A stretch of 49,680 bases of DNA, counting the filler, from Catajapyx aquilonaris (lineage: Eukaryota): assembly GCA_000934665.2 (NCBI GenBank). It is 2 parts of 2 records of this genome, joined end to end, with 100 filler letters (N's around TTAATTAATTAA, not from the genome) between each part and the next. Parts side by side here need not be neighbours in the genome. Positions count along the whole stretch, not along the records: positions 24,898 to 49,680 come from JYFJ02005458.1; 1 more part is not named here. One strand, 5' to 3'. Each line of letters opens with the position of its first letter. The stretch's first letter is position 1. The notes beneath the pieces were generated by a model. The model had not been told where the DNA came from and did not search any database. It saw only the letters and a program-made list of their open reading frames with translations. Of this stretch, positions 1,571 through 46,225 are shown one piece after another. The position numbers were made by a program, and so were the translations under genes.

Positions 1571-2589
1571 TTTTTTTTTTCTTCAGCCCCACTTGTCTAA
1601 CGCCAAACACAATCCCCCAGCGCTTCCGGGTGAAGTGCACCCGGGAACATCTAACCGACCAAGACTCATTTGGATCCATCTTAGTCGGATAAATGGAAAG
1701 TGACCCAGCCCCAACCCCTTCCCACATAATACACCATGCACTGGGAGGCATAGGGGTTGGCTGGCTGGAATCAACGGGGTTTTCGGGAATCACCATACTT
1801 CCGTGCAAGGACAAGCCAGCACACGGGGACACAATTTCACATGGCTCAGATTCACATTAAGGTGGCGTTTTTTATGGGTGGCCCCCTGGATGTCGACACA
1901 TTTACACAAAACACATAACCCCAATCCTGCACTCCTGTCACTCCGACCTTCACCCACTGGCCTTCACGAAACGAGATAACACTCGCGTAAGGTGAGGAAC
2001 GCCATTTGATGCAACCGGCACACACACACGATATTTCAACGGGTCTTGTATGCACAATAAAAGAGTCGTCCGTATGATGTAGGTCACGTTCATTCATTGG
2101 GTGTGGTCACATGTAGATCACGCCGGTTGTGGATTCACACGTAGCAGGACGTCCGCAGCCGTACGTACGAAGGGTGATATTATGAAACTATGGATATTCC
2201 TGAATGTCACTGTTAAAAAAAAAAAAAGTCGCAGCAACTGGCGACAGGAACTGGCGACCTTTGGTAATACATAGGATTGAATGAGAGTGACGACTCGCAA
2301 CTGCAGTCGCCTGTTGGTGAACCGACGCGCCGTACCCTCATCATTCCCCTCCAGCCAATTTCAACGGATGACTCGTCCATGAAGACAACATTGCTCTAGT
2401 CCTCCGCTGTCCAGTTCCTGTAGCTCTCTGTTTAATGAAGGGAAATAATGCGATATTATCGCGTAATGTGGCAACCATACTCATGTGTGTTTATACAGCA
2501 GTGGGATGGGATGGGCAAATATACCCATAGTATGACTATATCGACAATGTATTATTTCTTAATGTTATAATTGCCCAAATAGTAACATA

Positions 2590-13973: not shown

Positions 13974-14160
13974 CTATGACTCCTGGTATGCCTTGGCATC
14001 GCCAATAATCCGAAACTTAATTTTCAAAACTTTTTGATCTTCAGACCAACCTGAGACGGTGGCTGCTTCATCCAAGTTAGTCAGAAAGTGATTCACTGAC
14101 TCCGACTGTAAGCCTTGGAAGGTGGGAACCAATTGTATGAACGACAAATCAGGTCGGTTA
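13974..14160 (-). mobile_element. Retrotransposon gag (capsid-like) fragment
   Basis: LVPTFQGLQSESVNHFLTNLDEAATVSGWSEDQKVLKIKFRIIGDAK fits the Gypsy-type gag pattern PxFxG...FL..xE.AA...W...K.....L.G.A. Confidence 0.75.
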
Positions 14161-14749
14161 GACTCATGAACAGCCGGTCGGTTCGGTGTCAATCTGGGTG
14201 GAGAAGAAACAGACGCAGACGTCATCTGGGATCTGCGTCGTAGTGACTCAAGCTCCTTTTCTTGGGACATTATAACTACATCTTGGTTAGGTGGAATGGC
14301 GGACACACTAACCCTTGGTCTACCTACAGTTCCGTCTGTTGCTTGCAATGGGTGATTGCGCAACTGCAGGGTACGAATTTTTATGTCCTTAGCTGGAAGT
14401 GTGTAATAATGTAAGATGAGTGTTTATAATATATTTTAAAGGGCGTTAATGTCAGCAAACGGATATCTGTCACAGAAAATCTATGGACTCAAACCGGCGC
14501 AGCGTCTGAAATTTTGATAGTTAGAATAGTTTGACACTTTTTAAACACAATCCTCGAACTTATTACGAGGAGGGAAAAAACGCATTTAGATTTATACACA
14601 TCTTTCCAGGCAATCAGGCATTATTAAGAGCAATTGCCCATTCCCTTGCATATGCAGGCAATGGAAGGATTATATAATTATATTTTTTGCATCATCCTCT
14701 GTTCCGGCCCGCATATGGTTGGAATTACATATCCTATCTCTCGTATGTG

Positions 14750-21181: not shown

Positions 21182-23518
21182 TCTTAATACATATTTCTCG
21201 ACGTATGTCTGTCTCTTTGTCTGTCTTTTATTCGCTATGCAAATCCGTGCGGAGGCTTCGACATACTCCCCAGGGGTGTCACTAGGGGTAGTTTTTTACC
21301 GGGAAGGTTCTTAGCGCATTGGAATTTACCTCCGAGGTCATCCTTGGCCACAGGAGGCGAAAAAGAACTTCAGATGTTGGCCCCCTGTGTTCTAACAATG
21401 CTGTTCAGTTGCCCTGGAAACCATGTCCTTCCCTCCTCCCTCCCTCCCTCTCTCCCTCCTCCCCTTCCCTCCCCCTCTTCCCTCCCCCCCACCTGCCACC
21501 ACCTCCCCCAGCCCCTCACTGTCATTACATTTCTACGAGGTGGCTGTACTTTGGTCAGTGTTTTTGCACTCACATTGGTTGCATACTTTATTGTTCCAAT
21601 TTAGAATTTATTACACACTGTTGCCTTGGTTATTACGAGACTACTGGTGTGATTGGGCGATGATCACGTTTTGTTCATAATATTCAAAGAGTTCCATATC
21701 TTGCTATCCTGATGGTATCTCATTCCATGTGTATCCTATAGACACGGTGGCACGACGGTCCAGCTACGGGGCAGGCCCAGGGTTCGAGCTAGTGGTATAC
21801 AAATGCGCTGTGTGTAAGAGAATAGCGGTTTTGGGCTGTTTGTTCAGGCAGCCTGTCGGAATTTTCTTGGCGTACTTTTTCTGCCATACCTTTTCCTCTA
21901 CGTACTGTGTCATGTGCTTTTTGTCTTCATTCTTCTGTTCCGAACTGCCTTACGTTCTCTGTCATGTAGTTTTCAATCGTTTTGCTTCTATTTGTTTTTT
22001 CCCCCTTTGTAAAATTTGGACCTCCACATCCTCAATGTATATTCAAAAGTCGCTATGGGATGTGGTTTAACGTGTTTAAGGCGTGGTATAAAGGTATAAG
22101 GTGTGGTATAAGGTGTGGTATAATGTGTATAATGGTATTACGTGTATAAGGTGTGGCATAATGTGGTCTACGTAGGTATGTGTCATGCAGGATGCAGTTT
22201 TCAATCTTTTATGCATTTGTTTGTTTTTTCACTTTCTAACGTTTGGACCTCCACATTCTCAACACCACACCGACTTTAAGATGGGCCTAAAAACATAGTA
22301 GCATTGGCAGAAGCACATTGGATACACACAGAGTTCGGCTAAGGGTGAGGGACCAAGAGACTGAGGAAGAACACCAAGCATGTCTCCACTCTATGAGAAA
22401 CAGCGGCCATCAGTCGGAGATTAGCTCCATTTCCATCAACCCACCTCCTACATGCCGCTTTCCACTACTCAGCAGACATTGACAATAATTCTTCTGTCGG
22501 TGTTGTTGCAATTGGATCTATGTCAGATGTATGCCAACACTGTCAGGCAAAGAAGTGGAAGGGTGAAACAAAAACGATCTGTTGCTCCATTGGAAAGGTT
22601 AGCCTTCCTCTACTGGCTGAGACCCCACAGCTACTTAAAATGCTCCTCTTACAGGCACATCACCTGATTCAAAACATTTCCTGAAGACCATCAGAAATTA
22701 CAATTTGGCCTTCCAGATGACATGTTTTGGGGCCAACGTTGTTAGAGAAGGGAACTTCATGCCTACATTCAAAGTGCAAGGGCAAATTTACCATCGCATG
22801 GGATCACTCCTTCCTTCAGAAAATGAGAGTCCGCGGTTTCTGCAGCTTTACTTCGTGGGGAACATGCAACAGCAGGCGGAACACCGTTGCACCTACTTAA
22901 ACAACACACGCCTCCACATCACACTGCAACTTCAGGAGATGATCCATTCCACTCATGTCAAGGAGCTTCAAACTTGCACTTGAGAGTCCTCCTCCTCCGG
23001 AATTTGACTTGGTTATTCATGCAGACAAGCGACCACAAGGCGAGCATCGTGGTCGATTCAATCAAACTTCTTGCAATGGGACTGCTGTGATCATGAGTGG
23101 TCAGGAGCATGGTAAGAGGGATATTGTGTTGAAGCTTCGAGACAACACGCTTCATCTATGCAATTATGAACGTAATTGGCCATACCAAATATTGCATGTG
23201 CATATAATCCTAAAAAACACACAATGGATGTCAGATTGTAAGCTCTGCCATGCTGGAGCTTCTACATTCTACATTAACTGCACAACCTTCAATTTTTCAT
23301 GACATACTTTTGCTGGATTTTGGAGGTGTATTGTGTATTTTCTTACAATCCGACATCCGCAGTGTGTTGTTTGGACTTCATGCACATGCAATATGCTCCA
23401 TGTCACTGGTATGCCAACATTGTATAGCCATAATTATTACAAAGGTTACTACCAAATCAATGAGTCACTCCTATGGAAAAGTATTTCATAACCCGAGCAA
23501 CGCCGGGTATCCTGCTAG
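21182..23518 (+). mobile_element. Internally deleted Helitron with intact termini
   Basis: 5' A|TC at 21181/21182 followed by GTCT-type repeats. 3' hairpin CCCGAGCAACGCCGGG then CTAG|T ending at 23518. An internal RepHel N-terminal fragment (~22500-23155) reads SKHFLKTIRNYNLAFQMTCFGA...NFMPTFKVQGQIYHRMGSLLP...FLQLYF, then LVIHADKRPQGEHRGRFN...RDIVL. Confidence 0.92.
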
Positions 23519-28669: not shown

Positions 28670-29786
28670 CTAACAGCACCAACTCGCAGCTGCACTTTCA
28701 CCATGGGGTAGAGCGCTCCCTGTCAACTTCCTTTTCTCACCAGAGTTTCTGATAGGCATTGCATTTGGTGAACCTGTGTCATAAACTCGGATGCCACCAA
28801 TCTGGTTGTTCTCATACATCCTGGCCAATGTCTGGGCTGCATGAAAGAACACCTCATCCACTCCTGTAATGAAATGATAATTGGATTAAAGAAATCTGAA
28901 AACAATGGCAAATTAGGTATGACCCATTCCAAAATGACTTGAGCTCTTAACAGTTCCAAACTTCATCTCCTCTAATATTATGTTCCCAAACTGACAAGCA
29001 AGAGGAGTCAGAAACACGATACACGCACTCTTCTCAGTGACACGAAAACATCATCTATTAGCACAATATAATTTAAAATTTCAAACCTTCTCCTGTCATG
29101 GCTGAAGTCTCAAAATACATTGCACCAATCATGGATGCATACTCCAGAGCTTGGTCTTGTGACACAACCCTCTTTGCTCTCAGGTCACACTTGTTGCCAA
29201 TCAAAATGAGAACGATGGGCTCCTCCACATTCCGCCTCAGTTCTAAAATGTGAAACTTCAATGTGGTAAACAGAACATGATTTGGCATCATGTCAAACTG
29301 ACCTTTAACCCAGGATTTTGCAGAAGCAAATGAGTGTTCTTGTGTAATGTCATACACAACTAGAGCTGCATTGGCATTTCGGTAGTACATAGGAGCCATT
29401 GACTGAAACCTCTCCTGTCCAGCAGTGTCCCACACCTGCATCTTTACCCTGGTAGTCTCCAGGTTCACCTTGAAGGTAAAGAATGATGCTCCGATGGTGG
29501 GGTTGATGTTAGGGCTGAATGACTTCTCCACATATTGGACCACTATGCTTGTCTTTCCCACTCCTTCAAGTACAAATACAATATCAGAATACGTCATCAA
29601 TCTTGCAGCAACAATGCACAATGACGCAATAACAAAACAATGCAAACATATCAAGACAGCCAGTATATAGCAGCAACATAACCATGTGACTCATGAAACT
29701 GCAAAATTCAGCTATTTGCATTTTCAACACACTGAAAAGATACCTTGGCATCCTAAGATGACAAGCTTGACTTCAAGTGTCCTCAT
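28670..29786 (-). CDS. RabX1: Rab GTPase of the Rab5/22/31 group, RabX1-like, 217 aa, 4 coding exons
   Basis: Exons 29786-29744, 29563-29303, 29242-29087 and 28863-28670 total 654 nt. Motifs: GCQGVGKT, PTIGASFF, WDTAGQERF, APMYYRNANAA, ELRRNVEEP, GNKCD, ETSA, and a C-terminal WCC prenylation signal. A likely non-coding first exon has a GTGAGT donor near 30100. Confidence 0.9.
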
Positions 29787-30939
29787 CCTTTGTGGCTGGT
29801 GTGTCACACGTCCCAGCCACCAGTATATGTCATCCCATGTGTTGCACTGCCTTCACGTGCCAGCTGTTTCCTACCAAGGATGCGGATGTGGAGGGCAGTC
29901 AGTCCCCCCTGTTCCTCCACCCTTATCTAGTCTTATTCTACGGTATAATTAGATATAACCCTCGTAGGAGTGAAGGGGATTCAGGGTAAAGGAGCGAGGG
30001 TGCGGCCCCCCATCCCACCCTTTGTCCGTCTGTCCTCCCACCCAGAGATCAAAGGTTATTTGATATCTCTGTCACACTAAATTTCACACTGCCACTCACC
30101 CGCTAAGCCAATGTAATTGCGCCACTAATTCCCAGGCAATGAGTACAGCGCGGGATAATTGTGCGTATCCAGTTAAAGTTAAAGGCACAGGCGCGACAGG
30201 TTGTTGGTTCTCTTGCAAATGTTGAAGCTTGAAGGCGCGCCGTAGCCTTCAACTGTCCTCACGCGACTCGACGTTGCCAAATTTTGTATTTGCATATTTG
30301 TCACATGAAAAAAGTGTGCAAATTAGTTTCCAAAATTGGGAGTATCATGATTATTTTTTAACGTAATATATGTACACAATAAAATTGCCACAAACACCTA
30401 CTTACGGTGATATGAGATCTTCACAATAGGAAAGTTGACAACGTTCAATATGGCGCCACCCCTGCATTTTATACTGGTTATAGTGCGTATGTCTTACCAG
30501 CCATTATCCACTACCAGGTCGCTGTTGACCACTGTTGACTCTTCACATAGTGAAAAACATCGTCAGTTTTTCCAGTGAATTTGGAACCATAAAACATCAT
30601 TGTCCTCTATCAATTTGGTGAAAAGCTGCAGGTCTGTTTGTATGGGAACTTTCAGACTTTCAAGTTCAGTACTTGAAAACATGCCAAGTGTGAGGTGGAA
30701 CTGTGCCAAGGGAAGAATCTGGAAACTGAATTGTAAATAACATTTGCACAGTAAGACAATTTGTATCTCATTAGGCTCACACCAGCGGATTTATTAAAAG
30801 TGTAACAATTCAATAAATTAAAGCCTATATTGCGCAAAATACACCATTTTTTCCCAAATATTAAAAATTATAACCCTTGTACATAAAACTGCACATTAAA
30901 TCAAAATTCCAACTTAAATTGCTAGTCATCCAATAACGA

Positions 30940-33900
30940 TCATGAATATCCCATGCTCCTTTGAATGAGATCAGCAGCATTTCTGATGGCCTGGGCACAT
31001 GACTGGGTGTTGATGTGCCTCATGCAAGTAAGTCGGACAAGTCCACACTGATACCCTGAAGCCAACCACAAGTGGCTACCCAGGTTAGGATTCCATCCTA
31101 CACAATTTACTGATGTCATTGGGTACATGTCTACAGGCAGCATTGCCATCTGTTCGGTGCCGTGGCCTCGCTTAGTTGCCAAGTCCTGCCTCAAACGTGG
31201 CATGTTGTGCTGTGTTCAAAGAAGAAATTCAGTGATGCTATTTAATATCACCATGAAAAGGACCTAAAAGGAACATAACAGGCCCAAACTGACTGCAGGA
31301 TTCTAGAACAAACTCACAGGGATCAGCAATAAATTACATCATTCTGATAGTAAGCTTTCTTGACTGCCACCATGCCACATAGGTTCATCCTAACCCACCG
31401 TCTTGTGTTACTCTTACTCCTTACCTAACCCCAAACATAAGCCAATTTTTAGAGGATCCTCTTCTATTACCTAACTTTATTAATTGCCCGTGATTAAGTA
31501 ATTTTGATGGTAGGAAACAAGAAAACCCCATGACAACCCATGCGAGCTAAAAAAAAATCTATCAAAACTCCCTCCACATGAGAAAATTCTCCACCCAAGC
31601 CAAGTATCGAACTTGGGATCTCATAGCAGAAGGCTGTAGCACTAACCATTACACTTCATGCTGCCAATACAATGTAAGGCAATAAGATATGGTGATGAGG
31701 AATGTAGTGCTTGTCTCAGAAACTATCATAAGCAACTCATGCCAACTCCACTTCATCACAAGGATCTTATTGCCCAAAATTATGTTTGGGTTTGGGTATG
31801 AAGTGGGATAAAGATATAGCCTACTGGTGGCTCAGGACTGCCACAAGAAGTTGGTCCAGGTATAGATGTGTGATGTACACAACTGTGGATGAGCTTCGTA
31901 TGATAGTAACTTTAGGTTCAGTTGCATAATCAACAGTAAATTCATAATGAATGATTGATCAATGTTATCACTTGTTATTGGTTGACTCTGAGCAAGAAAT
32001 GGTAACATATTTATTACTGTCCCAATATTCCCTATATCAGTCTGGTGTGCTCTGAATAATATTGTGTATGACACAGCCCTCCCTTCAGGTATTTACTCAC
32101 AAGTGGATAATCCTGGATACTCAGTCCGTAAGTCCTTGCCATCTCATCATAAGTGCGAGGATAAGAATGATATTTCTCCTCAGCCTTATGGGCTTCTTTC
32201 TTCTTCACTGCTCGAGGTCCATGTCGCACAATTGGCTGTGGCAGCTCATCACTATTGCTCAGACTCTCCAGTTCTGCACAACAGACCATCTGAAATTTGA
32301 AATAGTAATGTTTATTGTATGCATCTTCAAGCCGTTATTTTTCAAATATGCAGCATTACCATCTTCCTCTTCCCAAGAGTCTTTGCAGTATCAACAGAAC
32401 TCAGCAACTGGCTTGCTATGGATAACATAACTTCTCCACTGGCAGTTGAATGAACCATTGAGTTCAGCCATTCAGAATACCCAAAACCCTGCCAAAACAA
32501 AATGATTCAACATATTGCCCTGCATGAACCCCTTCACTACCAGCTAGGCCGAAAACGCGTATATTTTAGCTTACACTTAGTCTGAAGATCAGGACAAGAT
32601 ATTTTACAAATCATAACTCAGGGGCGGATAGTTATGCTCTTAAAAAGGTCGAAATATGCATGCAAATATTCCCCAGAAAATAGCGAAATATTCTCTCAAA
32701 TATTCTCTAAAACCTGCATTTAATTCGCGATTTATTCTTGCGTTACCTGGAAAAATAAATACATGCAAATTATGTGCCATGGACTTGAGACTTTATCTCA
32801 CACAAGAGGTTTATTTCTTACACAACTTCATCATTTCATCAATAATTGTCTTCAGTTTCACTATTGAAGTGACAATGAGAGACAATACTTTTTTCCAAAT
32901 TGGATGCAGTTAATCGGTGCTTTGTCTCACTCAGGGTGCCCTTGAGTATTGAAAATGACCGATCCACATCACATGTCGTTATTGGTGCGTTTCAAAATGG
33001 TAAGCTATTGTCCCAAGGTTTGCAACGTAATAAATAAAATACAAAAAAATGTGGATAACAAGATTAACGAAGTAAAAAGCGTGAAATATTCCACATATGT
33101 CACTAAAGCCAAAATATGTCGTAAAGCTCGAAATATTATTTAATATGCAAAATAAGACCCACTTTTTTGGACTCCTGATGTCATGATTCCAATTTTCGTA
33201 CAAATCATGCCCTCGTGCATACAGAGGAAAAAACTATGTAAAAACATAACTATCCGCCCCCTAATCATAACAGCTATAATAACCCATTCATGTAAAACAC
33301 TATTAATGTGTTGCTAACAGTTTTACTCCTCTAGAAGTCCCTAAAATAATTTCCGAAAAGACAGACCTAAAAACTCCAAATTAGAGTACTGCCGGTCAAC
33401 AGTTAGGCTGACTTAATTATGAAATACGCTAGAATATACAGAACAATAACCTTGAGAACCGTGCCAGACAAATTTGCTCAAATCGTCGTACTTCTCGAGA
33501 ATTAAATTTAATACTTATTAGCAGCTTTTGGACACTTCGGAAAACTCCCAAATTAATTTACTTCTCGCGAAGTGTCAGAAAGTCACAAATAAGTATTAAT
33601 TTATTTCTCGCAAAGTACAACGATTTCAGCAAATTCGTTGGCACGGTTCTCAAGGTAGTTGTTCCGTATATTTTAGAGTATTTCATAATTAAATCAGCCT
33701 AACATTTGGCCGGCAGTACTCTAATTTTGAGTTTTTAAGGCGGTCTTTTTGGAAATTAATTTAGGGACTTCTAGAGGAGTAAAATTGTTCGCAACATATT
33801 AATAGTGTTTTTACATTAATGGGTAATTATTTGTAAAATATCTTGCTTTTATCTTCAGAGTAGGCGTAAGCTAAAATATAGGCGTTTTTGGCCTAGCTAG

Positions 33901-36900
33901 TAGCGAAGGAGTAAAAGGTACACAATCATAGAATTGAATCCTTCAATTACTCACCCACACCACTGAATTTTGGGGAAAGATTGTAGCCAACTTGCTCCCA
34001 AAGTTACATATTGGTGTCATGACAGTGTTACTGTGTCCCAAACTGTAAAAATTGTGGAAAAACTTGCGTTAACCAGAATAACTGCTTTAACATACAATAA
34101 GATATTCACCCAAACGTGTCATCATAGGTGGTGAGTGCAGTGACCCAGTGCATTGGCCAGTGACCATTAGTTACATTGCCACGCTTGTTGGAGAATAGGG
34201 GCTGGGAGGTGTCCTCCAGATCCCAACATTTCACTTGACGGTCCATAGAACCAGTCATCAAGTAACGGCCTTCCAGGTGGGGCCAAAGAGTTAGGGCTAG
34301 AAGAATCAGTAATCATATCAAACCCATATATACAGTATTTCATGCTACAGAATATCCCATCATAATCAATGCATCATGCTCAGCAGCAGGAGTATATTAC
34401 TAGCCTTTTGAATCTACTATGAATTAATATTACAGATAGTTATTGTACCAGTATCATATTTTGTTATTCTGAAAGTAGGTATCAGCAGAGTAGCTGAGAC
34501 AAAAACAAGGAGCAAACATGGACACTACCAGCAGGAAACACAGGCATGACCCAGCCCAATAAATATTCTGCAGGCAATAAATTCAGACAAACTGCCAAGA
34601 AATAATGTGGAAAGCAGAATTTTTTTTCCAGTATTTTGTGACATCTTGCAGCATTAAATTATTATTTCGCTCTAACAAAAACCTTTAACAACAGTAAACA
34701 TAAAGTTGCACCTACCTGTGATTAAGCCATAGTGTGCTCGGAAGCATAAAAATGGGTGATAGATAGTGGTGCTACCATCCTGCATTTTAAGGAGAGGAGA
34801 TTCTGTAGCCAGGTCCCATACAGCTATGACACCATTTGAAAATCCACCAGCTATCAGCCTGCAATGCATTGTATTAAATTATTACGTACTTTGATGTGTC
34901 AATTTTTACTTTCTTCATGCTCGGTTCAAGCATTATACAATCTCCAAAGGTAAAGGTTAAATTTCTGAATTCTCATAGTCTTGCAAGCTGGGAAGATTGC
35001 CCAGATAAATCATGTGAAATTTCCCTTCCACATACAGAGATAATAAGTAAATGAGACCCACCCATGTCCTTTCCCCTTGAACCATGAGATACGGCTGCAC
35101 TGGTAGTTGTCCATGAGGCTGGTTCCACATTCTCCTATTGCTTCCAACACAATGTCTGGCCTTTTTTTAAAAATTGGCCAGCTTCCATCAGAAAGCTCTG
35201 GGAGTGAATGAGGTTGGCATATGCTGTATATGCGCACCTTCCCATCCCCACAAGCTGCGGCAAGAAGCCCCAGTCGCAGAAGGGCCTCGACTGGCTTCTT
35301 TGTGGAGTCAAAGTCATAGCAGCCAGATGGACACCATTCCAAACACCACACTGGCCCACCTTCCATTATGATGCCTAGCACAAGTTTTGGAATATCTGAA
35401 GGACTGAAAAAAAATCAGTTTAATTCACACTGATGATTGATGCAATGCATAGCATCAATAAAATTCACAATGTAACAAAAACATAATCTCTACGTAAAGA
35501 ATACTTCTTCATTTTACACATACGAGGTATTATAATGTAGGAAAGCCAACACAAGTCAAGCAAGGATCTACCAAGTTTATCTTCTTCCTACCAGCTGTTA
35601 TCATGTTAGCATTTGAGTCACACAAAAGTAAGCTAATATTCCTATTATTTTTGTTAAAATTTGAACTTACCTGGGGGTAGTTAGCTTTCCAACATCCCAA
35701 ATCTGAATAAGTGTGTTCTCACTATATCTCTCACATACATTGTAGGCAGTATCCACGCTTCGTGGGCAACTGAGAGCCAGGAACTGCCTCTGATTTGGGT
35801 CAGCTAGTAGAGGAAGAGGGCACCAGGCCATGCTCCACACCGGGCCTCCACAGAAGAAAGTGGGCACGTTCCCCAACAGCCTGCCTTCAAACAAAGCTAA
35901 ACTAATCCACTCTTTGCTTTGAGATGATTCGAACATTTCCTGAACCCGGAACTGAACTGAAGAACACACTAGTGGCACCTCTGCTACAACTTGTTCTTGT
36001 TTCACCCAGGTCCAGTTAGCAGACAATGATGTGAGGTGAGAGAAAAGATGCTTTGAAAAATTCTTGACTTGGCTGTAAAGGACCATAATGATTAGCTCAT
36101 CCCTTCAAGGTTCTAATAACTAATGCATTAAGAATTACACTGTAATAAACGTTGAACTTACAATTGGCTAGTCCAGTATGCAGCAGATGTGAAGGCCTGC
36201 AATGGCGATCCACCATATAGGAAACGCTCTGACTGCAGGAATGGAAATCGGACAGTACCAACTGCAAAATAATTTTATCGTAACAATGGAAAGAATTATG
36301 TACGTTCTACTACACAACTTCAAATGTCCCAGACACTGGAAACAAAAAATTTTACTAGCGGGATCTAGCTTACTGCCTTTCCGGTTAGAAGGGGCCTTGC
36401 TTTCCCTCAACCTCTTTGAGGTTGAATTATCAGACTGTATGTCCTCCTCAGTTTCTTCTGCATATCCGTCACTTTCACTATCACTACCATCCATTACATT
36501 CTGGTGTGCCTTTGTGATGTGCTGCATCATATCGTCTTCTTCCTTGGATATGTATGGGCATACTTTGCATCGGAAGTGGTCCTAAGTGAGATGCCCAATG
36601 TTACAAGTGATCCAAGATTCCTTTCGCAATATTTTTAAAATCCATATCCTCCAAGAACATATTTAACAAGAGTACTGCACAGTTCCTTTTCCACCTTTAC
36701 ACCAATACAAAGTTGGTGGCAATGTGTATAACTCAACGAAGGACAAGAAGCACCGAACTCGGTACAACAAAAACTGAAGGGTGTTGTTTGTGGGCAATTC
36801 CACGAAAAAGCGGACATGGGGTGCGGTTCTTATATCTTGACGCAGTTGGAATCTGAGTGACTAAAACCGAAGCATGTGGACCATGGTTTCCTTAGCCATG

Positions 36901-39900
36901 TTAGTTTGTGACAGTATCATTCCCAACAACCCAGTATTATTCCCAAAGTCTAAGCGTGCTCTCTGTGATATCCGCTCGGCTAATGCGCATTGCCAGCTAG
37001 TTATTCGCTGTACCGGATATGTGAAAGGAAGAGAGACAGACGTCTTCATATAATTCAAGGGCACAAAATGCAACATCTATCTGTGCAATCACTTTGCTGT
37101 ATGCATGAATGTGTGACCTTCCACAGCCACACCAAAAGGTATCCACTTGACGTGGTTGTACGTAACGAAATAATCTGACTAATGTGTTGTATGCATGTGC
37201 TGTTTAAAATGTGGTCTTCAAATGCTGGGTCCTTCGTTAGATTAGACTGTTCCAGCCGTATGCAAAATATCAGTGTCGTCAGACGTTTCGATCTGGGTGA
37301 AAACAGCGTTACGTACCATCCAAACTGAGCGCAAGCACCCGACAACGAGCAGCTCAGATTACGCTCGCCAATGCAAAAAGCAGTGTATGCTTCTTGTGCC
37401 GGGACACCTCTGGATCACAGGTCATGTTTGACAAAAAAACGCGTATACGCAAGTTTATACCCTTCTTTCGCCAACTTGCAAGCGTCTTTTGTCCGTGAAC
37501 TTACAGAAATGTGCGCGAAAACATCTAAGGAGAGGCAGGCTGACTTTCGCCGCAGACGGAAGGAGGCTGTATATGTTGTTCCCTTTTTGCAACTGTTCAA
37601 AATTGTCATATAAGTAGCCTACTAAGTTTCATTTATGTGAACAAAATTTAATAAGCGTATGACGCAAAATGGAACGTTACATTGTTGTGGCCTTTACTTT
37701 CATCCTGAAAACTTACCTAGTTCCTATTTCAGTGCAGCGGAGCCATAATAAGATTATGAATTCACAGACATTCCAATCTCCAAAAAATTATGCTACTCCC
37801 AGTAACGGGTCGTTATATACCACGTGACCGTTTTGGGGGGAGGGGGTGGTCTGCTGATATACCACGGTTGGTCACAGGGGGGAGTCGGCGAAAATTCACG
37901 TGGTATCTCGGAACACAGTGAATTGGCACATATGGGACCTTTTGCAGATGCACATGGGTTCAAAATAACCTAAAATTCGAAATCAGCGACTCCGAAAACA
38001 TGGGGAGACAGGTTTTTTACGTGCTTAAACAGTTTAGTTGAGGAGCTATCAATTTCGATCGCGGTTTTTCTGATAACATTGACATGTAAAAAAAAAACAC
38101 GTGAAATGGGGGGAGGGGGGTTCCAATGGATACCACGGTCAGTCACTGGGGGGGAGGGGGGGGTCAAAAAGTGGCCAAAAATCGGTCACGTGGTATTTGG
38201 ACGACCCCTAAATCGCTGTAGGTTGTACGTAACGGTGGCGGGTGGTACGTAACGGGTGGATATCTCAAATATTTTCACGTTCAAAATGAGAATTCTCCCA
38301 ATCTAATGGCATGATGAGGTTCCTCGCATCCTACTGCCCCACATGCACTTGAGCTTCGAAACCTGTGCTGTCAGATTTCGCAGAGTTTCCCCCTAGTTGC
38401 ATATACCCCAGAAACTGGTGTCCAATGACGGATGGTACGTAACGAGATTTCAGACACTCGCACACGCGTGGATGGCCATCGAATGAAATTTCCATGATGT
38501 CCCTCACCTTCACATTTCTGCGCTGCATCTGATTTTCATAACAGTTAATCTATTACGGCAAGTACCTAGCCGCGGTGGACTCCTAAACATCTCAACACAG
38601 CTTCCGATTGTCTGTACGTAACGCGTGGAATTGCCCTTGTTATTAATTATTTAGTGCCAAAAACTAATCAGCAATTCCTAACATGAGAAAACATGCAATT
38701 TTTTTTTGTATCAAGAATCAATATTAAGTATCAAGAGGGTGCTCCTGACCCAAAAACACTTCCTAGCCAGAGTAGCCTATTAATTATAACTCCCAGCATT
38801 TTTATACATGGTATCCACTCCTTCAGACAGCCATCTTGTTGCATCAGATTCTGGGACAATTTCAGCATTTTGACGACAATTCAGTTCATAACTTATCTGT
38901 GTAATTTTTCAGAAAACTTTCTAATGCTTACAGCTCGAGTACAATCAAGTGTATCAGACACTTACTTTCTGTATTTTCTTCTCGCACTGGAGATAGTGAC
39001 TCTTCATGGCATCAACACTGCTGCTTTTGTAGGTACAATTTGGGTATCTACAGGTTGCTTGGCCACCATTTCTGATTTCCTTCTTCCAGCTTCCAATGAG
39101 GGCATTGTTAGCACTCCCTGATTTTGATGGCTTCAGAAACAGTGATGCCTGAAATTATAGAGTGCACATTGTGTTAAAACAATTACCTGCATATTGTGCA
39201 CTAACATCAGCTGCACAATGAGAGATTTAAAACATTCCATAAAAAAGCTTGTTATGTTATTCAAAATTTAAACAATTTCAATCTGTCATTACCACATCTT
39301 TTTTGATGACTAAGTCAAACTCGCTGTCTTCCTTGTCCACCTCTTCCTTAACACCACTGGCACCAACCTCGTTAGCCACCTCCTGTATCTTCGACCTTGC
39401 TCTAAAATAACACATTGAATTAAGTTATAAAAAGTCAATATTAGCTTCGCAGCAGTCTGCTTACTTTGTAGCTGCAGCTCTACATCCTCGCCCAAGTGAC
39501 TCAATTAAAGGTTCATCTTCTTGCCAAGAGTCATCCAATGCAACTTGCCTGAGTGACCTGCAAGCAGAGCTTTGATGCTGGGCAAAATATGTCTTCGAAA
39601 TCCATCTGCCACATTGATCGCATTGCTCCTTCCTTTCCTGAAATGAAGCTAAGTTGGAATTATGTCTATTAAAAGAGCATAAATGTTCCATCTCACCTCA
39701 AGTGACTTTCCACACAATTTAATGTGGTACTGCCATCCAAGGTAACTGATGAATTTCTTATTGCATAATTCACAAATGACAAAGCGGACAGCAGCTAAGG
39801 AGGCTAACATCAGCTTTCTGTGTTCGCTCTCTGGCACCTGTAAGAAGCAAAAGCAGTATTTCTTATTCCAACTTACAGCACATAAGGTAACAGGAAATGG

Positions 39901-42900
39901 AAAAACAACTGACCAAAAATTTTATCTTTAGCTGTCAAATATGTTTCTCTAAATATTGCCTTCTATATTCAGGGAATGCTCTTCCTAATTTTTTGATATC
40001 CAATAATAAGTTAAATTCTATTTAAATTATCTTGATTAATGATAAGTCCAGCATTGCATAAAAACACGAGTTTTGTAAATTTACACAAACATATTCATTA
40101 TGTCAAATATTATAAGTTATTTTATCTTCACAGTCATTAAAATGAAAATACCTCTGGGTCACCTTCCATGTTTGCTATGTTGTTGTGATGGCGCATGTTG
40201 TGCATAATAAAAGCTGATTTCACCATTTTCTCCTTGCATTTGGCACAGGTGACATCTGGTCCTTTTTCTCTTGGTTCTCCTCCATCTGGTCTTTTCTCTG
40301 TTGGCTCACCTCCATCTGGTCTTTTCTTTCTTGGCTCACCTCCATCCTTCAGTCCTTCTTCAGTACACTTAAGTATTTTTCTAGGGCGGCCTCTACCCCT
40401 CTTAACTGGCAGGGTTTCAATATCAGGAGGGGGAGTGACCACTGAGACTCTCTCAGGTTCTGGGACAGGTTCTGGGACAGGTTCGTTTGGTGCAACATCT
40501 CCCTCCATTACAAAGTCAGATGAGTATCTAGTTGTTCCTCTAGTACGGTTCCTTCTTTGTGGGTACCTTCTGCTATCATTTTGCTGCATTTCAACTTTTA
40601 CTTCTGTGGGCTTCGCTGAGAGTTCAGGTTGCTTTGGCTTTCTTCCTCGCTTTTTAGGTTGCTTTCCAGTTGGCATATCTGATTCATTAAGAGGTTCTGA
40701 TCTGCTCAGCAATACCGCAGAATTAACCATTAGTTCAGAGCATTCTGCTGGTGGTCCCCTTTGTTCAACTGGTTGGCTTTCTTGAAATCCTACTGGAATC
40801 TCTGGTACATGCCACGACTGTATATGACCTGCTGTCGCATCTGCATCTCTTTCATGTCCTACTGGTTCTGCAACCACCATTAAATTCATTTATCCTCCTG
40901 CACCTCTAAGATTGGGAGGGAACAGAGAAAACAAACACAACTAAATAACCTCACCTGTTCTACCAATATCTATTGGACTCTCCACTGCAGTAACTTCAAT
41001 TTCTACGCTTATGTCAGCTTCATTAATTTGGTCCCCTCCATGCTGATTACTCTGGCTAGGTCTCCCTCTCTTGGAAGGTCCCTCATTCTGTGTATCTTTT
41101 CTTCGCTTAACAGGTCCTCCATCTTTCCTTGGCCTCCCAACCGTCTGAACTATGGGTATCATAGTTTCTTCTGCTTGTTCATATTCATACACTTCTTGGG
41201 AAGCTGACTGCAAAACAAATCATCACATTTCATCACAACATGAGTCTACAACTTTTACGAACTGTCTTCACCAGCTGCACTTCTCCAACTTGCTTTTCCT
41301 AGCACATGACTCCTCTATGACTTTCCCTTGACTCATTAGGAAGTTTTAAGTCACTTTTAAGTTACATAAGAAGTAATACCTACTTCAGCTTCTTGTAATG
41401 TCAACACATTGGGAGTAACAAATTAGTTAAAAAACACCTAATGTAACTTGGGTTTCATCCACTAGGACTAGGTGCATCCCAAATTTAACACATCCCACAC
41501 TATTGTAATAATTTTCACTGTCATAAAATACAAGGTTGTTCTTAACAATTCAAAACAATGCAATTAATAATACAACAGGTTTCATAGTTTAATTAAAATC
41601 AATGAAAATGTATCTATCCTCCTGGAGCCGAATGCCCTTGATGTGGCAACCTCTTCAGTCTCTCCAGGAACCACTTTTTGGTGGTGCGGCACACCCACTC
41701 CCGGACAACTGCTCACAGTCAACAATGTCCTCGAAGTGGCGTCGGCAAGCTTTTTTGATGGATCCAGCTTTGGGTGCTTCCACACCCGCCGTACTCCCCT
41801 GATATGGCCCCTAGTAACTTTCATATGCGGTGTTTGGATCCATGAAGAAATCCCTTGGCCGCCGCCGCCATTTTGAGGACATTGTTGACTGTAAGCAGTT
41901 GTCCAGGAGTGGGTGCGCTCCACCACCAACACGTGGTTCCTGGAGGCCTGGAAATGCTGCCGCACCCGTGCCACCAGTGCAGTCGGTTCCAGGAGGATTC
42001 CATCGATAATGTGTACAGTGTACCTATCTGCTGACCTGCATGGGCCCTGTATTTGTGGCAAAAAATAATAATTGTAAATAATTTTGGTACGGCCCTTGTA
42101 CAATAATAATACCTAACCTCGTCCAGAAGACAACCCAGTGTGAAGTAAAGAATGAACAGGCATGTAAAGAGTGGCTCATTGCATTCATGTAAGTTCTGGA
42201 CACGAATATCAACTTCAGACAGCAACAGTTTTGTTTCTCTGGTGTACCTAAAAATCTATTCCATTTCTGTGTTAAATAGTTTCCATTATATCCAACAAAA
42301 ATGCAGTGAAAGTCATACAAGTACGAGTAGTTGGGGCAGCATAATTTTTCCACAGCACATAAGTTTCTCCTCCCATGAGCATACATATTTCTGTACTTTA
42401 AACCTGGGACTCCACTGAATCAACTTTGTTTGCAACTTTTCTGTTGTAATTCGTGAAAATATGTTACCTACCAATGCCTCTAATGTACTGGTTCTGTCCG
42501 ACTGAACAGCCTGAATTATTTTCTCTCTCTTCTCTTTCCATTCTCTACAGCTCTCTGCCTTTGATTCTGTGCTATGGGAAATCTCCACATGACGCTTCAG
42601 ATTCTCTGATGTGCTGAGCATGCCATTGCAATGGTTACAAAAGAATCCCACATTTGAGTCCTGAGCTCCAGTGCACATCTTATGATGTGCAGTCATGTCT
42701 TCCAAGCTCAAACCAATGTAATTGCAAGTTATGTTGGTGCATCTAATGAAGCCTCTCTCACTCAGTGACAGATTCCAGTTGTACAGGACTAATGGATGGA
42801 CGTCACATGATGCACTGCTTTCCGCTGAAGTACTTTTCAACTCCTGTCTTGTTCTTCCTGATGTTTCTTTATGAAGTGCTGATGCTAAATAAACAAAGTT

Positions 42901-43557
42901 GATTTAGTGAAAGAAAGTGATGTCAGTCTGAACTTGAAATTAATTATGTTCTGTAAATACTCATGGTACATTCTTGTTATTATTATTATAGACCTTTGGA
43001 AACCATTGTACGGTATCTCTAAAAAAGACTGAGATGATTGTGCACCTGTAGTAGTGATGATGCAATGACCTGCTCACAAGAGTAAGTTGCCCACCCAAGG
43101 TGGCCATTCAGAATGTAATTAAAGTGATAGACACACACACACAATCTTCACGACATTGTCCCATAAAGGGTGGCCAGCAATGGCCGGGTGATGTAGACCA
43201 ATACAATGTATCCTCTGGTATAAAAATTAAATGAATATTAACCATACCTGGAAAATCCTGATTGACTGTAGAGATAGTGGATGGTACACTTGGTGCCAGC
43301 TTGATTGGCAGCATAATTCTCTTCCCATCCTTGATATTTACGAGGCATAATTTTTCTAACTGAGCTGGAGTTAGCACAATCAACTTCATATTCTTGTTAC
43401 CATCTGTAAAATGCCAAGTTAGGAATCATTTGAATATTACTCCAGTGGACTGCCTACCTGTAGGCCTGCTGGAGCTGGTTGAGGGTGTACTGTCATCCAG
43501 ATTACATTCAGGTACCCTTTCCTTCTGTGCCTCCGAAGCACATTCGCTGCCTTCCAT
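30940..43557 (-). CDS. GTF3C2: ZNF512-like zinc-finger/AT-hook region joined to a GTF3C2 (TFIIIC110) WD40 domain; ~1439 aa, 19 coding exons
   Basis: Exons: 43557-43458, 43403-43248, 42884-42472, 41207-40955, 40867-40152, 39837-39697, 39637-39465, 39401-39293, 39148-38966, 36581-36356, 36261-36162, 36072-35671, 35403-35062, 34858-34716, 34296-34110, 34042-33955, 32488-32360, 32289-32101, 31209-30940. Total 4320 nt, all GT-AG and phase-compatible. The C-terminal half has FFCGGPVWSMAWCP, GPVWCLEWCPSGC, RLGLLAAACGDG, MTGSMDRQVKCWDL and VGWNPNLGSHLWLASGYQCGLVR. The 42472 donor and 40867 acceptor are less certain. Confidence 0.85.
31440..31665 (-). mobile_element. Diverged copy of the V-like tRNA SINE
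   Basis: The reverse complement GTGTAATGGTTAGTGCTACAG...AGTTCGATACT...GAGTTTTGAT...GCATGGGTTGTCATGGGGTTTTCTTGTTTCCTACCATCAAAA parallels 26067-26337. Confidence 0.65.
32529..33910. mobile_element. Palindromic foldback MITE in an intron, interrupted by a second element
   Basis: 32530-32610 plus 33272-33540 form the reverse complement of ~33565-33910. The ends CCCCTTCACTAC / GTAGCGAAGGAG are loosely piggyBac-like. Confidence 0.85.
32618..33262. mobile_element. Nested TIR element with 9-bp TSD
   Basis: TIRs GGGGCGGATAGTTATG / CATAACTATCCGCCCC. AATCATAAC is duplicated at 32609-32617 and 33263-33271. Confidence 0.8.
36792..38636. mobile_element. Non-autonomous DNA transposon with 13-bp TIRs and 4-bp TSD (Sola2-like)
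   Basis: GGGCAATTCCACG at 36792-36804 and CGTGGAATTGCCC at 38624-38636, with TTGT on both flanks. The internal motif GTACGTAACG recurs. Superfamily inferred from the GRG terminus and 4-bp TSD. Confidence 0.8.
37806..38208. mobile_element. PIF/Harbinger-like MITE nested in the Sola-like element
   Basis: TIRs GGGTCGTTATATACCACGTGACCG / CGGTCACGTGGTATTTGGACGACCCC, flanked by TAA at 37803-37805 and 38209-38211. Confidence 0.8.
40254..40347 (-). repeat. Coding 30-bp tandem repeat, 3 copies (DGGEPxxKxP)
   Basis: KDGGEPRKKRPDGGEPTEKRPDGGEPREKGPD in exon 40867-40152. Confidence 0.9.
41530..42101. mobile_element. Mariner-derived foldback remnant
   Basis: Plus strand encodes LPHPPYSPDMAPSNF (mariner YSPDLAP motif) near 41777-41820. 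41640-41770 is a diverged reverse complement of 41835-41970. Ends are TACAAGG and CCTTGTA. Confidence 0.8.
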
Positions 43558-43679
43558 CCTTGTCGCCAGCAACTTAAAACTGCGGGCATATAAATTTCCA
43601 TGAGCTGCAGAAATGCAGCCACCATACTAGAAAAACAATTAACTGCCCATTTGCAGTAGTTTTGGGCAGAAAATAAACG

Positions 43680-43755
43680 TAACTCATGGCTGGATTTGAA
43701 CCAATGACCTCCCGTTTTCCATTCCATGACCCTAACCACTGAGCCAAGCAAGTCG
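43680..43755 (-). repeat. tRNA-like fragment (SINE head) with A and B boxes
   Basis: A box TGGCTCAGTGG (43746-43736) and B box GGTTCAAATCC (43702-43692). No convincing acceptor stem. Confidence 0.65.
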
Positions 43756-43859
43756 CAAGGAAACTTGCCTCTCAGAAGCCATAATCATGCTTACCTATTA
43801 TCTTGCAGTACAAATCATAGGTGGAGCAAAATGGCTGGTATCCTTGCCCGTGCTTACCG

Positions 43860-44390
43860 CACCGAACAAGCCCTCAGAATCGACTCTGGAAGCCACACAC
43901 CCCTCAGACGCCGGGAAAGGGAAAGAAATTAATATTTCCTTCCCCTACGCAATTCCTACATAACGGTTTACATGTTCCACACAGTGTCAATACGCATCCT
44001 CCGATTGATCACACCACTTCAATCCCGTGATTTTATTGGCTAAGCTTGACTGACTGGAACGTGTAAATCGGAGCCACGCTGTAGCAGTGTCGTCCTGCCA
44101 TCTATCCGCAAAGGGATGTACCATTTTCAGTACGGTATTTACACTGCTCTGCAAACCAAGTCTAACACTGTGCTAATTGGTGTACATACACGGATGGTAC
44201 TTTATCTAACCAATAGAGTATGAGTGATACTCGTCACGTATTGCCGGGTAAGCACGAGCAGATGACAGGCCTGGAGATCAGTGCAGCCAACGTAGATAAT
44301 AATTCTTCCACGGAATGATCAGGGCTGCCAAACGTACCTCCGGAAGAGCCGCAGGGGAACAGGATCGGCCACGGCCAGCCAGCAGGAAAG
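43860..44390. promoter_or_regulatory. Putative bidirectional promoter region (GTF3C2-like gene / Dlic)
   Basis: Head-to-head genes with start codons ~830 bp apart. A minus-strand GTAAGC donor near 43857 suggests a non-coding first exon. Confidence 0.55.
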
Positions 44391-46225
44391 ATGGCGCCGG
44401 TTCGGGAGGAGATGGACCGATCGACGGACGGAACGGAGACGATGACCGCCTCCTCGTCGGAGCCGGAGGGAAAAGCGGACAACCTTTGGGTTACTATCCT
44501 GAGCGAAGTACAGGCCCGGAGTAACACCAAACTGCCCTCATGCAAGCAGGTGCTGGTGCTTGGAGACAGGGAGGTTGGGAAGACCACTGTGGTGGCCAAG
44601 TTGCAGGGAGTGGAGGACCCCAAGAAAGGATCGGAACTGGAGTATGCCTACATTGATGTCAGGGACGAGTACAGGGATGACCACACCAGGCTTGGGGTCT
44701 GGGTCCTTGACGGTGACCCCACCCACGCGCATCTGCTCCGCTTTGTGCTATCAGAGGAGACCTTCCCGCACACATTTGTGGTGCTCACAGTCTCCATGGC
44801 ATCACCCTGGGGGGTCATGGAGCAATTGCACAAATGGGCATCCATATTACAGGTACAGGTGCTTGGCAGGGTGGGGCCAGATGGTGGGCGGATGGAATTG
44901 GACCGCCCACAAATCTGTTGGTGTGAATTTCACTTGCAATGCATCAAAAATTGCACTTTACATTATTCGTGTTCAGTTAATCTATTCAGTACACTGCACA
45001 AGCATTAGCTCAATATGTATAGTGTGGCAATAGCCAACATTGGGAAAGCCTGATATTTCCTTTTGCAATCTGTAAGGTGTTTGGAAGTCTGGAATTGAGA
45101 TAGTTTCTAATGCCTTTATTTGCTCAACAGAGTGTATTTTAATGCCACGTTATGGCGCACTTCTAATAATTGCTATTCTCGCAGGACCGGGTGGACAAGC
45201 TGAGCCTGTCTGCCGATGCTGTTCGTGAATTCAGAGACAAGGTGGCCAAGAGGTGGCGTGAATATATAGTCCCAGGTGATGAGCTGGAGGTGGCAGCAGC
45301 AGTCGGCTCCAAACGTAACTCAGTGGCTGAAGATGAGGACCCAACGCCCCCGAGTGACCTACTCTTAACTCGCAACCTGGGGCTGGACATTGCAGTAGTG
45401 GTAACCAAGACAGACTACATGTCCACATTGGAGAAAGAGCATGATTACAGGGAGGAGCACTTTGATTACATGCAGCAGTGGCTCCGCAAGTTCTGCTTGC
45501 AATATGGCGCAGCCCTCTTCTACACATCAGTCAAAGAGGACAAAAACTGTGATCTGCTCTACAAGTACCTGGTTCACCGGATATATGGGTTTCCCTTCCG
45601 GACACCAGCACTCGTTGTAGAAAAAGACGCAGTGTTCGTGCCTGCTGGGTGGGACAATGAGAAGAAGATTGCCATACTGTACGAGAGCATGCAGGGAGTG
45701 GGCCCAGATGACTACTACCCAGAGGTCATTGCAAGGCCTGTGACGGCCCGAAAGAATCCAGGTACGAAGGAAGTCGAGGTGCAGTGTGAAGGCGAGCAAG
45801 CTTTTTTGGCTCGGCAGCAGCAGCTTCTCCAACAGGGGTTGCCTGCACCTGGTTCAAGACCTGAAGCTGGTCGTGGTTCCCCTGCTGGTGTCCAAAAGAC
45901 GGCTGAGAGAAGGTCAGGTGGTGCAGTAGGTCCTGGATCAGGAGCAGCCCAGGGGCCCATGGCTCCTGCTAAGAAGGCAGACCCAACGAAGCCTGGTGCA
46001 GCAGGAACGTCTGAAGGAGTTCTGGCCAACTTCTTCAACTCACTGCTGAGCAAGAAGACCGGAGGGGCACAGGGTGCAGGGGGTGCAGCGTCAGGTCCTG
46101 GGGCATCCAAAATGGTGGAGAAAGCAGCTGTTCGTTCGGATGCTGCAGCAGAGCTGGACAGGTTGACCAGAGGGAAGCCAGTTGGGAACAGTGAAGCAGA
46201 CTCAAATAATGCTTCTGAGTGCTAA
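44391..46225 (+). CDS. Dlic: Cytoplasmic dynein 1 light intermediate chain, 500 aa, 2 coding exons
   Basis: Exons 44391-44852 and 45185-46225. Motifs: NLWVTILSEV, LGDREVGKTT (P-loop), KKGSELEYAY, VWVLDGD, VVVTKTD, FCLQYGAALFYTSVKEDKNCDLLYKYLVHRIY, PAGWDNEKKI, and the adaptor-binding helix EGVLANFFNSLLSKKTG. Confidence 0.96.

Follow-up and report, generated by a model that had tools for sequence, protein, structure and literature searches.

TFIIIC acts beyond the transcription of tRNA genes, as it also marks chromatin boundaries and polymerase-free sites. Its subunit TFIIIC110 (GTF3C2, tau91 in yeast) has a WD40 propeller which pairs with TFIIIC90 and holds TFIIIC220 WH4 (PMC11811891). The zinc finger proteins ZNF512 and ZNF512B are described as conserved among vertebrates, and the layout given for ZNF512B is four pairs, each of a C2HC and a C2H2 finger, pairs 1 and 2 being separated by a large disordered region (PMC11602157). 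Binding of satellite and other repeat DNA and recruitment of SUV39H or NuRD are reported for the vertebrate proteins (PMC13537249, PMC11602157), and the tie of ZNF512 and ZNF512B to satellite repeats and SUV39H is only recent (PMC13537249). Here, we describe a locus from Catajapyx aquilonaris (GCA_000934665.2) at which the two types of protein are joined. It lies in a stretch of 49,680 nucleotides, filler included (the window), which consists of two parts of two records of this genome.

The locus, on the minus strand at 43557-30940, is the TFIIIC110 (GTF3C2, yeast tau91) gene of this organism, and it is most probably a single gene. By sequence comparison, residues 1-780 of the predicted protein are a complete ZNF512B-type module, while residues ~825-1439 correspond to the pre-propeller segment and the WD40 propeller. 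A single TFIIIC110 gene which carries a ZNF512B-type module, probably with a DNA-tethering role, and which retains the older, fused layout is the best explanation as a whole, and we hold it with good confidence. In itself, the gene is an ordinary orthologue, and the corresponding proteins are publicly annotated under names such as 'GTF3C2', 'C2H2-type domain-containing' or 'uncharacterized'. The recognition of a full ZNF512B-type module in TFIIIC110 and the idea of a common ancestral gene both appear to be new. In a literature search that covered few subscription journals and no supplements, no paper was found that connects ZNF512 and TFIIIC110, be it through common descent or through binding; publications naming ZNF512 and GTF3C2 together are, judged by title, association or expression lists.

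Gene model and the two halves of the protein

The gene was rebuilt exon by exon, by hand and with a script. The model has 19 exons with a total of 4320 nt (1439 codons plus stop) and begins with an ATG at 43557. All 18 introns are GT..AG with consistent phases, and the single stop codon is the terminal one at 30942-30940. The window contains 88 N, and the translated model is uninterrupted and without X. A 19-exon frame of this length with 18 canonical introns is no chance product. Exon 8 was picked from several candidates; it has a pyrimidine-rich acceptor and a gtaatg donor, and it restores the frame between exons 7 and 9. The sequence-only reading had proposed a phase-consistent open frame of 19 exons, which the rebuild reproduces, and all peptide strings quoted there are present in minus-strand frames at their places.

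Only one public sequencing run was found for the locus (X1). Its kind is unrecorded, no run recorded as RNA was found, and 0.28 of the sampled words are present in it. When the X1 contigs are aligned to 30500-44300, introns are skipped with CT..AC on the plus strand, so that these contigs derive from spliced RNA of the TFIIIC110 gene. The longest pieces have 0-1 mismatches, except for one intronic piece (10 mismatches) and one that runs from exon 3 into intron 2 (3 mismatches). At least 10 of the 18 model junctions are seen (3/4, 4/5, 6/7, 9/10 and 13/14 through 18/19), among them 38966/36581 (junction 9/10), which had been named in the sequence-only reading. The depth of X1 contigs cannot rank parts of the gene.

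Two introns contain repeated DNA. Within intron 3, at 41571-42112, mirrored open frames are found on both strands, and there is an 'opposite strands' joint (41648/42023). Within intron 9, the stretch 36830-38420 attracts many X1 contigs, with a depth of up to 68.7 and with odd joints (37802/38209, 37882/38186 and 38278/38420). These repeats are probably copies of transposable elements that are expressed elsewhere in the genome.

The C-terminal half is recognizable as TFIIIC110 even from single exons. Human GTF3C2 (chain 8cli_C) is the top PDB match for exon 12 (E 1e-5) and for exon 13 (E 1.2e-14), and its residues 828-883 are the only PDB match for exon 19 (E 1.6e-4). Exon 11 alone has no PDB match, and the WD40 Pfam matches on single exons are all below cut-off. 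A word-indexed search with exon 13 returned five proteins from 791 candidates: 'General transcription factor 3C polypeptide 2' from Timema poppense (53% identity), one protein each from an ant and a beetle, another protein, and a tunicate 'C2H2-type domain-containing protein'. Model residues 929-1418 are collinear with residues 990-1475 of milkfish GTF3C2; taken together with the pre-propeller motifs, which align across species, the collinear cover reaches from these motifs to the C-terminal strand. In the ant, shrimp, beetle, tunicate and milkfish proteins, it is the pre-propeller segment that matches exon 11 and the start of exon 12. This cross-species alignment around the join is the strongest argument for assigning exons 10, 11 and 12 to one gene.

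The pre-propeller segment, the WD40 propeller and the C-terminal closing strand are common to the window protein, human TFIIIC110 (8cli/8clj/8cll chain C) and yeast tau91 (Tfc6). Compared to human TFIIIC110, the window protein has ~780 additional N-terminal residues. Alignment of the human chain begins only near residue 190 (with the milkfish protein) or at 352 (with the ant orthologue, which aligns to human residues 352-693, E 3.5e-44), and the chain has no counterpart of the seven fingers.

These seven fingers were mapped by pattern to residues 1-780; four are of the type CxxC...H...C and three are C2H2. They are arranged as pair A (134-189), a spacer (190-512), an orphan C2H2 finger (515-535), pair B (568-619), a linker, and pair C (720-774). 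The spacer, ~320 residues long and disordered, has a high content of Glu, Pro and Arg; three GRP cores and one RGRK core lie within it. These cores are known by pattern; Pfam AT_hook reaches 14.8 bits on exon 4 (cut-off 17.4) and has no match on exon 5. A PDB search with exon 5 gave no GTF3C2 or AT-hook match, only rows at chance level.

An exhaustive search with exon 3 (pair A) against 1.84 billion representatives resulted in 52 matches at E<=1e-3, including fish ZNF512B (E 3e-12 and 2e-10) and Takifugu ZNF512 (E 2e-4). Among the 27 of these that were scanned with Pfam, five pass ZNF512_C2HC, namely the two fish ZNF512B proteins, Takifugu ZNF512, and proteins from Cimex (P0008, 32.0 bits) and Saccoglossus (P0028, 30.7 bits), and five have WD40-type matches at their C-terminal ends. 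In the PDB, exon 3 matches 2ctd_A (human ZNF512, E 0.0022) and 2gqj_A (KIAA1196, E 0.0031), which rank 2 and 4 of 25 and are the only matches spanning the lead-in and both fingers. KIAA1196, which we take to be ZNF512B, is a close relative of ZNF512, as judged by comparison with a milkfish record (see below). The AlphaFold (AF2) model of exon 3 has a mean predicted local distance difference test score of 71.6, with values >=90 over the two fingers. The first match of this model in a Foldseek search against the PDB is again 2ctd (E 7.5e-3, probability 0.93), while none of the 286 rows reaches E 0.001.

The five-finger block from finger 3 to finger 7 carries the comparison further. Five pufferfish (Takifugu, Tetraodon) ZNF512 proteins are collinear with window-protein residues 513-779 by BLAST. 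A multiple alignment shows an identical order of fingers in fish ZNF512/512B, in Saccoglossus and in nine arthropod proteins including that of the window, all of which also have the non-finger motifs GRxRRxAA..I.E and LVxD..Y.KP...WKxE in common. Profiles of the finger block were made from 11 arthropod proteins (window included) and from 10 vertebrate ZNF512/512B proteins. Compared by hhalign, they match with P 99.5%, E 5.7e-23 and a score of 157.6 over 260 of 280 columns, whereas the arthropod profile scores 14.1 with the reversed vertebrate profile and 26.7-59.2 with 12 generic zinc-finger proteins from the same match list. The vertebrate profile scores 102.5 with residues 512-775 of the window protein (256 columns), 120.3 with the tick protein, 113.6 with shrimp, 71.7 with ant, 64.3 with the ostracod and 55.7 with Clavelina; six generic controls score 24.8-62.2. 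The sequence-only reading had called the fingers ZNF512-like. This is upheld by the profile-to-profile comparison and by the collinearity of the five fingers and their linkers with fish and mammal ZNF512/512B, with the Pfam ZNF512_C2HC scores of single-exon pieces of the window still below cut-off.

C2HC+C2H2 pairs with a Trp-containing lead-in are found in vertebrate ZNF512/ZNF512B as well as in the window protein. In both, a long disordered region sets the first pair apart, and over the 260 profile columns fingers and linkers follow in the same order. The vertebrate proteins, however, stop behind the last pair and lack a propeller. The window protein lacks the C2HC partner of finger 3, its finger 5 ends in Cys, and putative AT-hooks are located in its spacer.

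The joined layout in other animals and its proposed role

A single continuous alignment, which extends over residues ~500 to ~1410 and covers fingers and propeller, connects the spliced protein with proteins of 10 arthropod clusters (Carabus, Penaeus, Cardiocondyla, Bemisia, Macrosteles, Nilaparvata, Apolygus, a cluster containing Dermacentor silvarum, and two others). The proteins from Timema and the ostracod Notodromas align in pieces, and the tunicate Clavelina 'GTF3C2-like' protein aligns with residues 730-1426. Fused orthologues include 'General transcription factor 3C polypeptide 2' from Bemisia tabaci (P0062, P0011) and proteins from Timema (P0001, P0010), Penaeus japonicus (P0054), Cardiocondyla (P0002), Notodromas (P0027), the Dermacentor cluster (P0087) and Clavelina (P0099). 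Their order of parts is the same: N-terminal pair(s), spacer, finger block, propeller. Most of them have 2000-3400 aa through a huge spacer, whereas the window protein (24-38% identity) is compact with 1439 aa. Several fused proteins have pair-A-like fingers at the extreme N-terminus, followed by a spacer of ~2000 residues, and the Clavelina protein keeps a single finger pair. The supposition that the architecture already exists unremarked in invertebrate annotations was correct; annotated cases of the fusion come from insects, crustaceans, a tick and a tunicate. A search of the protein Atlas found only two arthropod GTF3C2 clusters, together with unrelated ZNF106 clusters.

Logan contigs contain the fusion as well. 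In ticks, contigs of 8.0-8.7 kb carry 10 open frames with lengths of 2542-2572 aa, and in shrimp, two open frames with 2962 aa each are present on contigs of 12-13 kb. These contigs barely exceed their frames and fit spliced mRNAs, an origin that is deduced from their size.

In the hemichordate Saccoglossus kowalevskii, LOC102804013 (P0028, 698 aa) passes ZNF512_C2HC and ends in the middle of the last C2H2 finger. It is probably a truncated gene model, and there may be GTF3C2 exons beyond its end.

For vertebrates, longer proteins were searched with Takifugu ZNF512, and 11 of 3233 candidates matched. One of these, the milkfish (Chanos chanos) protein XP_030628070.1 (P0078; 1519 aa), annotated as 'general transcription factor 3C polypeptide 2', joins ZNF512 and GTF3C2. 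Its residues 1-523 are ZNF512 minus about the last 20 residues (PF21276 92.5 bits; 2ctd E 3.5e-34), and its residues 767-1499 are GTF3C2 (8cli_C residues 190-909, E 8.6e-188). As in the window protein, the ZNF512 part precedes GTF3C2. Unlike the window protein, however, the milkfish record consists of two nearly complete proteins placed end to end, and it may be an annotation merge of neighbours. Whether a true transcript or a merge, the record implies that znf512 and gtf3c2 adjoin on one strand in milkfish. In the sequence-only reading, both human genes were stated to map to 2p23. This is borne out, as they share a 417-kb interval, in which they are separated by ten genes (PMC2570409). No synteny with the human 2p23 neighbours was found; in the window, the gene is flanked by genes for a dynein light intermediate chain and for a Ras-family GTPase.

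A linker-type motif (SGRxxRxxAxVAxxxLxxxA) occurs twice in the milkfish record, at residues 371-397 in the ZNF512 part and at residues 772-797 at the start of the conserved GTF3C2 part. In human GTF3C2, the counterpart of the latter copy is located at approximately residues 190-215 of 8cli_C. A single copy is present in the window protein, where it lies between fingers 5 and 6 (39493-39377). The ZNF512 and GTF3C2 motifs match over a short stretch of 30 columns (hhalign E 1e-3, P 21%).

These comparisons suggest that the vertebrate ZNF512 and GTF3C2 families descend from one ancestral gene. The fused layout is most likely the older state, because it is general in arthropods and present in a tunicate, and vertebrate ZNF512/ZNF512B and GTF3C2 are then most likely its separated descendants; the direction of evolution is deduced from this distribution. 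The sequence-only reading had envisaged an ancestral state that split in vertebrates. Its first part is favoured by the spread among arthropods and the presence in a tunicate, whereas for the second part the shared motif hints at a duplication with reciprocal loss. A plain split of the gene in vertebrates is judged less likely, the sole support for this ranking being the weak 30-column motif match.

It is tempting to speculate that ZNF512/ZNF512B, which in vertebrates seed pericentric heterochromatin at satellite repeats, are the detached DNA-binding half of TFIIIC110, derived from one gene of the bilaterian ancestor by tandem duplication in the vertebrate stem and reciprocal loss. We put this forward tentatively and rate its chance as somewhat below even. 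One copy would have lost the propeller to become ZNF512 and later ZNF512B. The other would have lost the fingers to become GTF3C2, keeping the linker motif (GRxRRRAAxVA..L) and AT-hooks. If so, invertebrate TFIIIC carries a repeat-reading module and may target heterochromatin, and the vertebrate ZNF512 proteins may still act with TFIIIC at tRNA genes, short interspersed nuclear elements and extra-TFIIIC sites.

With respect to function, the human structure would place the propeller in tauB, beside the B box. The fingers and AT-hooks would then give the tauB module of TFIIIC additional DNA contacts that are independent of the B box. The N-terminal module would bind AT-rich or repeated DNA by itself, tethering or redirecting TFIIIC, and it may also recruit chromatin modifiers. 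This DNA-tethering role, which in vertebrates falls to the free-standing ZNF512 and ZNF512B, is extrapolated from these vertebrate proteins (PMC13537249) and from how AT-hooks generally behave. The joined gene provides the ZNF512 and TFIIIC110 families with a history and a testable link. It raises the questions of whether invertebrate TFIIIC binds repeats through its fingers and whether the vertebrate ZNF512 proteins meet TFIIIC. With its 1439 aa, compared to most of its relatives, the window gene is convenient for cloning and for chromatin immunoprecipitation.

Alternative explanations

Several points weigh against the interpretation as one gene with a ZNF512B-type module. The junctions that link the fingers to the propeller, 10/11 (36356/36261) and 11/12 (36162/36072), are not covered by X1 contigs. 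One X1 contig (575 nt, depth 7.1) joins 42549 in exon 3 to 36033, which is 39 nt inside exon 12. Pfam PF21276 (ZNF512_C2HC), scored on single-exon pieces of the window, stays below its cut-off of 27, with 20.5 bits on exon 9 (E 3.7e-4) and 15.0 bits on exon 3; the matches on both long C2HC fingers cover 34-35 of the 38 profile positions. The same family has no match at E<0.01 in the Timema, ant, Carabus and Clavelina proteins, and a word-indexed search with exon 3 found no match among 211 candidates. The vertebrate-profile scores of ant, ostracod and Clavelina are close to that of the best generic control (62.2), from which these proteins are distinguished mainly by aligned length. Most orthologues are predicted gene models, and size is all that points to an RNA origin of the Logan contigs. 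Only this one locus was assessed, so that a second, finger-less GTF3C2 copy may exist elsewhere in the genome. Finally, the functional interpretation is derived from homology.

The joint of 42549 to 36033 skips 6515 nt (ends 36033-36037 and 42547-42551). It was considered as a coding isoform and rejected, being out of the gene's frame and having GT..AG only on the plus strand, not on the strand of the gene. It may represent a spliced antisense RNA or a copying artefact (template switch).

The locus might yield two products, the full-length protein and a finger-less TFIIIC110 from an internal start in intron 9 or 10. This would be compatible with our preferred explanation and is, in our view, rather unlikely. 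Propeller-half X1 contigs are deeper than those of the finger half, though depth cannot rank parts of the gene, and four isoforms are annotated for the Cimex finger protein. On the other hand, no start site, first exon or junction for a finger-less product is found among the X1 contigs, and there is no in-frame ATG near the start of exon 11 or 12.

An unlikely alternative accepts the homology and reverses the direction: separate genes would be ancestral, with one or more fusions in arthropods and tunicates, and the vertebrate state would be the original one. Yeast and human TFIIIC110 are described without fingers in the accessible portion of PMC11811891. Finger-only models exist for Saccoglossus (P0028), Cimex, Anabrus and Schistocerca, and the sampling is bilaterian only. 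However, the fusion is found in chelicerates, crustaceans, hexapods and a tunicate and thus on both sides of the bilaterian tree. The Saccoglossus model ends inside its last finger and looks like one that was cut off. Moreover, the linker motif of the finger block persists in vertebrate GTF3C2, and a loss of fingers would explain this more easily.

It is very improbable that two neighbours on the same strand are involved, a ZNF512-like gene (exons 1-10) upstream of a GTF3C2 gene, with the frame across 36356/36261 being an accident or a rare read-through. The X1 contigs leave 36034-36492 uncovered and do not reach the link junctions; with a depth of 0.03 in the bin 36032-36492, this is a gap and is evidence neither way. 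Retention of intron 10 would add ~60 open codons up to a stop at 36168 and thus give a finger-only protein. Contig depth is 3.6-4.3 in the finger half and 7.1-10.9 in the propeller half, which is subject to the same limit on depth as above. Against this, exons 11-12 have no plausible in-frame start before residue ~905. A single open frame contains the same join in the tunicate and in 10 arthropod clusters, which include contigs of mRNA size, and the segment around it is collinear across species, with canonical splice sites and matching phases. The sequence-only reading had claimed one gene with in-frame splicing from the fingers into the GTF3C2 part. The open frame, the canonical splice sites at 36356/36261 and 36162/36072, and the collinear alignments to fused proteins speak for it, while RNA contigs across the link are missing here.

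That the fingers are ordinary C2H2/C2HC fingers with a generic rather than inherited likeness to ZNF512 is regarded as extremely improbable: the ZNF512_C2HC matches below cut-off, the generic multi-finger proteins among the exon 3 matches (e.g., P0006, E 2e-26, 22 matched stretches) and the Foldseek E-values, all >0.001, are outweighed by a block that is collinear over five fingers and two linkers, non-finger motifs included, by a profile score far above the generic and reversed controls, and by the Cimex protein (which has no propeller alignment, its GTF3C2 orthology not being established) and the Saccoglossus protein, both of which pass the Pfam cut-off.

Feature coordinates and neighbouring genes

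Table 1. Exons, zinc fingers and candidate AT-hook cores of the Catajapyx aquilonaris TFIIIC110 gene (positions in the window; residues of the predicted protein).
Feature	Position	Strand	Remarks
Exon 1	43458..43557	-	ATG at 43557; donor gtaggc; junction 1/2 not among the X1 joints listed
Exon 2	43248..43403	-	acceptor ttttacag, donor gtatgg; no junction among the X1 joints listed
Exon 3, finger pair A	42472..42884	-	junction 3/4 in X1
Finger 1, C2HC, pair A	42741-42673, residues 134-156	-	pattern mapping
Finger 2, C2H2, pair A	42639-42574, residues 168-189	-	pattern mapping
Exon 4, two AT-hook cores	40955..41207	-	junctions 3/4 and 4/5 in X1
AT-hook core GRPRK	41150-41118, residues 243-253	-	pattern
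AT-hook core RGRPS	41078-41046, residues 267-277	-	pattern
Exon 5, disordered, Glu/Pro/Arg-rich, ends with finger 3	40152..40867	-	X1 contig over 40150-40669
KKRGRKPK (RGRK type) in exon 5	40658-40626, residues 378-388	-	pattern
RGRGRPRK (GRP core) in exon 5	40403-40371, residues 463-473	-	pattern
Finger 3, orphan C2H2	40247-40185, residues 515-535	-	pattern mapping
Exon 6	39697..39837	-	junction 6/7 in X1
Finger 4, C2HC, pair B	39774-39712, residues 568-588	-	pattern mapping
Exon 7, finger 5 and start of linker motif GRGCRAAATK..IQEV	39465..39637	-	motif aligns with GRVRRRSAQVAVFHLQEIA of ZNF512B
Finger 5, CxxC..H..C, pair B	39622-39560, residues 599-619	-	pattern mapping
Linker GRGCRAAATKARSKIQEV	residues 642-659	-	between pairs B and C
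Exon 8, linker exon	39293..39401	-	frame restoration; junctions 7/8 and 8/9 not among the X1 joints listed
Exon 9, WKKEIRNGG and finger 6	38966..39148	-	junction 9/10 in X1
Finger 6, C2HC, pair C	39052-38984, residues 720-742	-	pattern mapping
Exon 10, last ZNF512-like exon; finger 7, then acidic and basic tails	36356..36581	-	donor 36356 without RNA cover
Finger 7, C2H2, pair C	36569-36504, residues 753-774	-	pattern mapping
Exon 11, first GTF3C2-type exon, pre-propeller motif AAYWTSQ-F	36162..36261	-	no RNA cover
Exon 12, pre-propeller segment and first blade (FFCGGPVWSMAWCP)	35671..36072	-	X1 contig over 35671-36033
Exon 13, propeller	35062..35403	-	junction 13/14 in X1
Exons 14-19, rest of propeller and C-terminal closing strand	30940..34858	-	all five internal junctions in X1
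Exons 14, 15, 16	34858-34716, 34296-34110, 34042-33955	-	gene model
Exons 17, 18, 19	32488-32360, 32289-32101, 31209-30940	-	gene model

Elsewhere in the window, long open frames at 872-1582 (-), 13974-14423 (-) and 22397-23300 (+) resemble remains of mobile elements; no Pfam family was found at E<=0.001 in the pieces 872-1582, 13974-14423 and 22639-22983.

Both neighbours of the TFIIIC110 gene were assigned by Pfam. On the same strand, ~1.2 kb downstream of its stop codon, an open frame at 29073-29690 (-) codes for a Ras-family small GTPase (Pfam Ras, E 9.7e-47). On the other side, a dynein light intermediate chain gene with its first coding exon at 44319-45008 (+) (Pfam DLIC, E 3.2e-58) is arranged head to head, ~760 bases from the TFIIIC110 ATG. 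The G+C content over 44001-46000 is 0.52 and thus above that of the surroundings, which suggests that the two genes share a two-way promoter.

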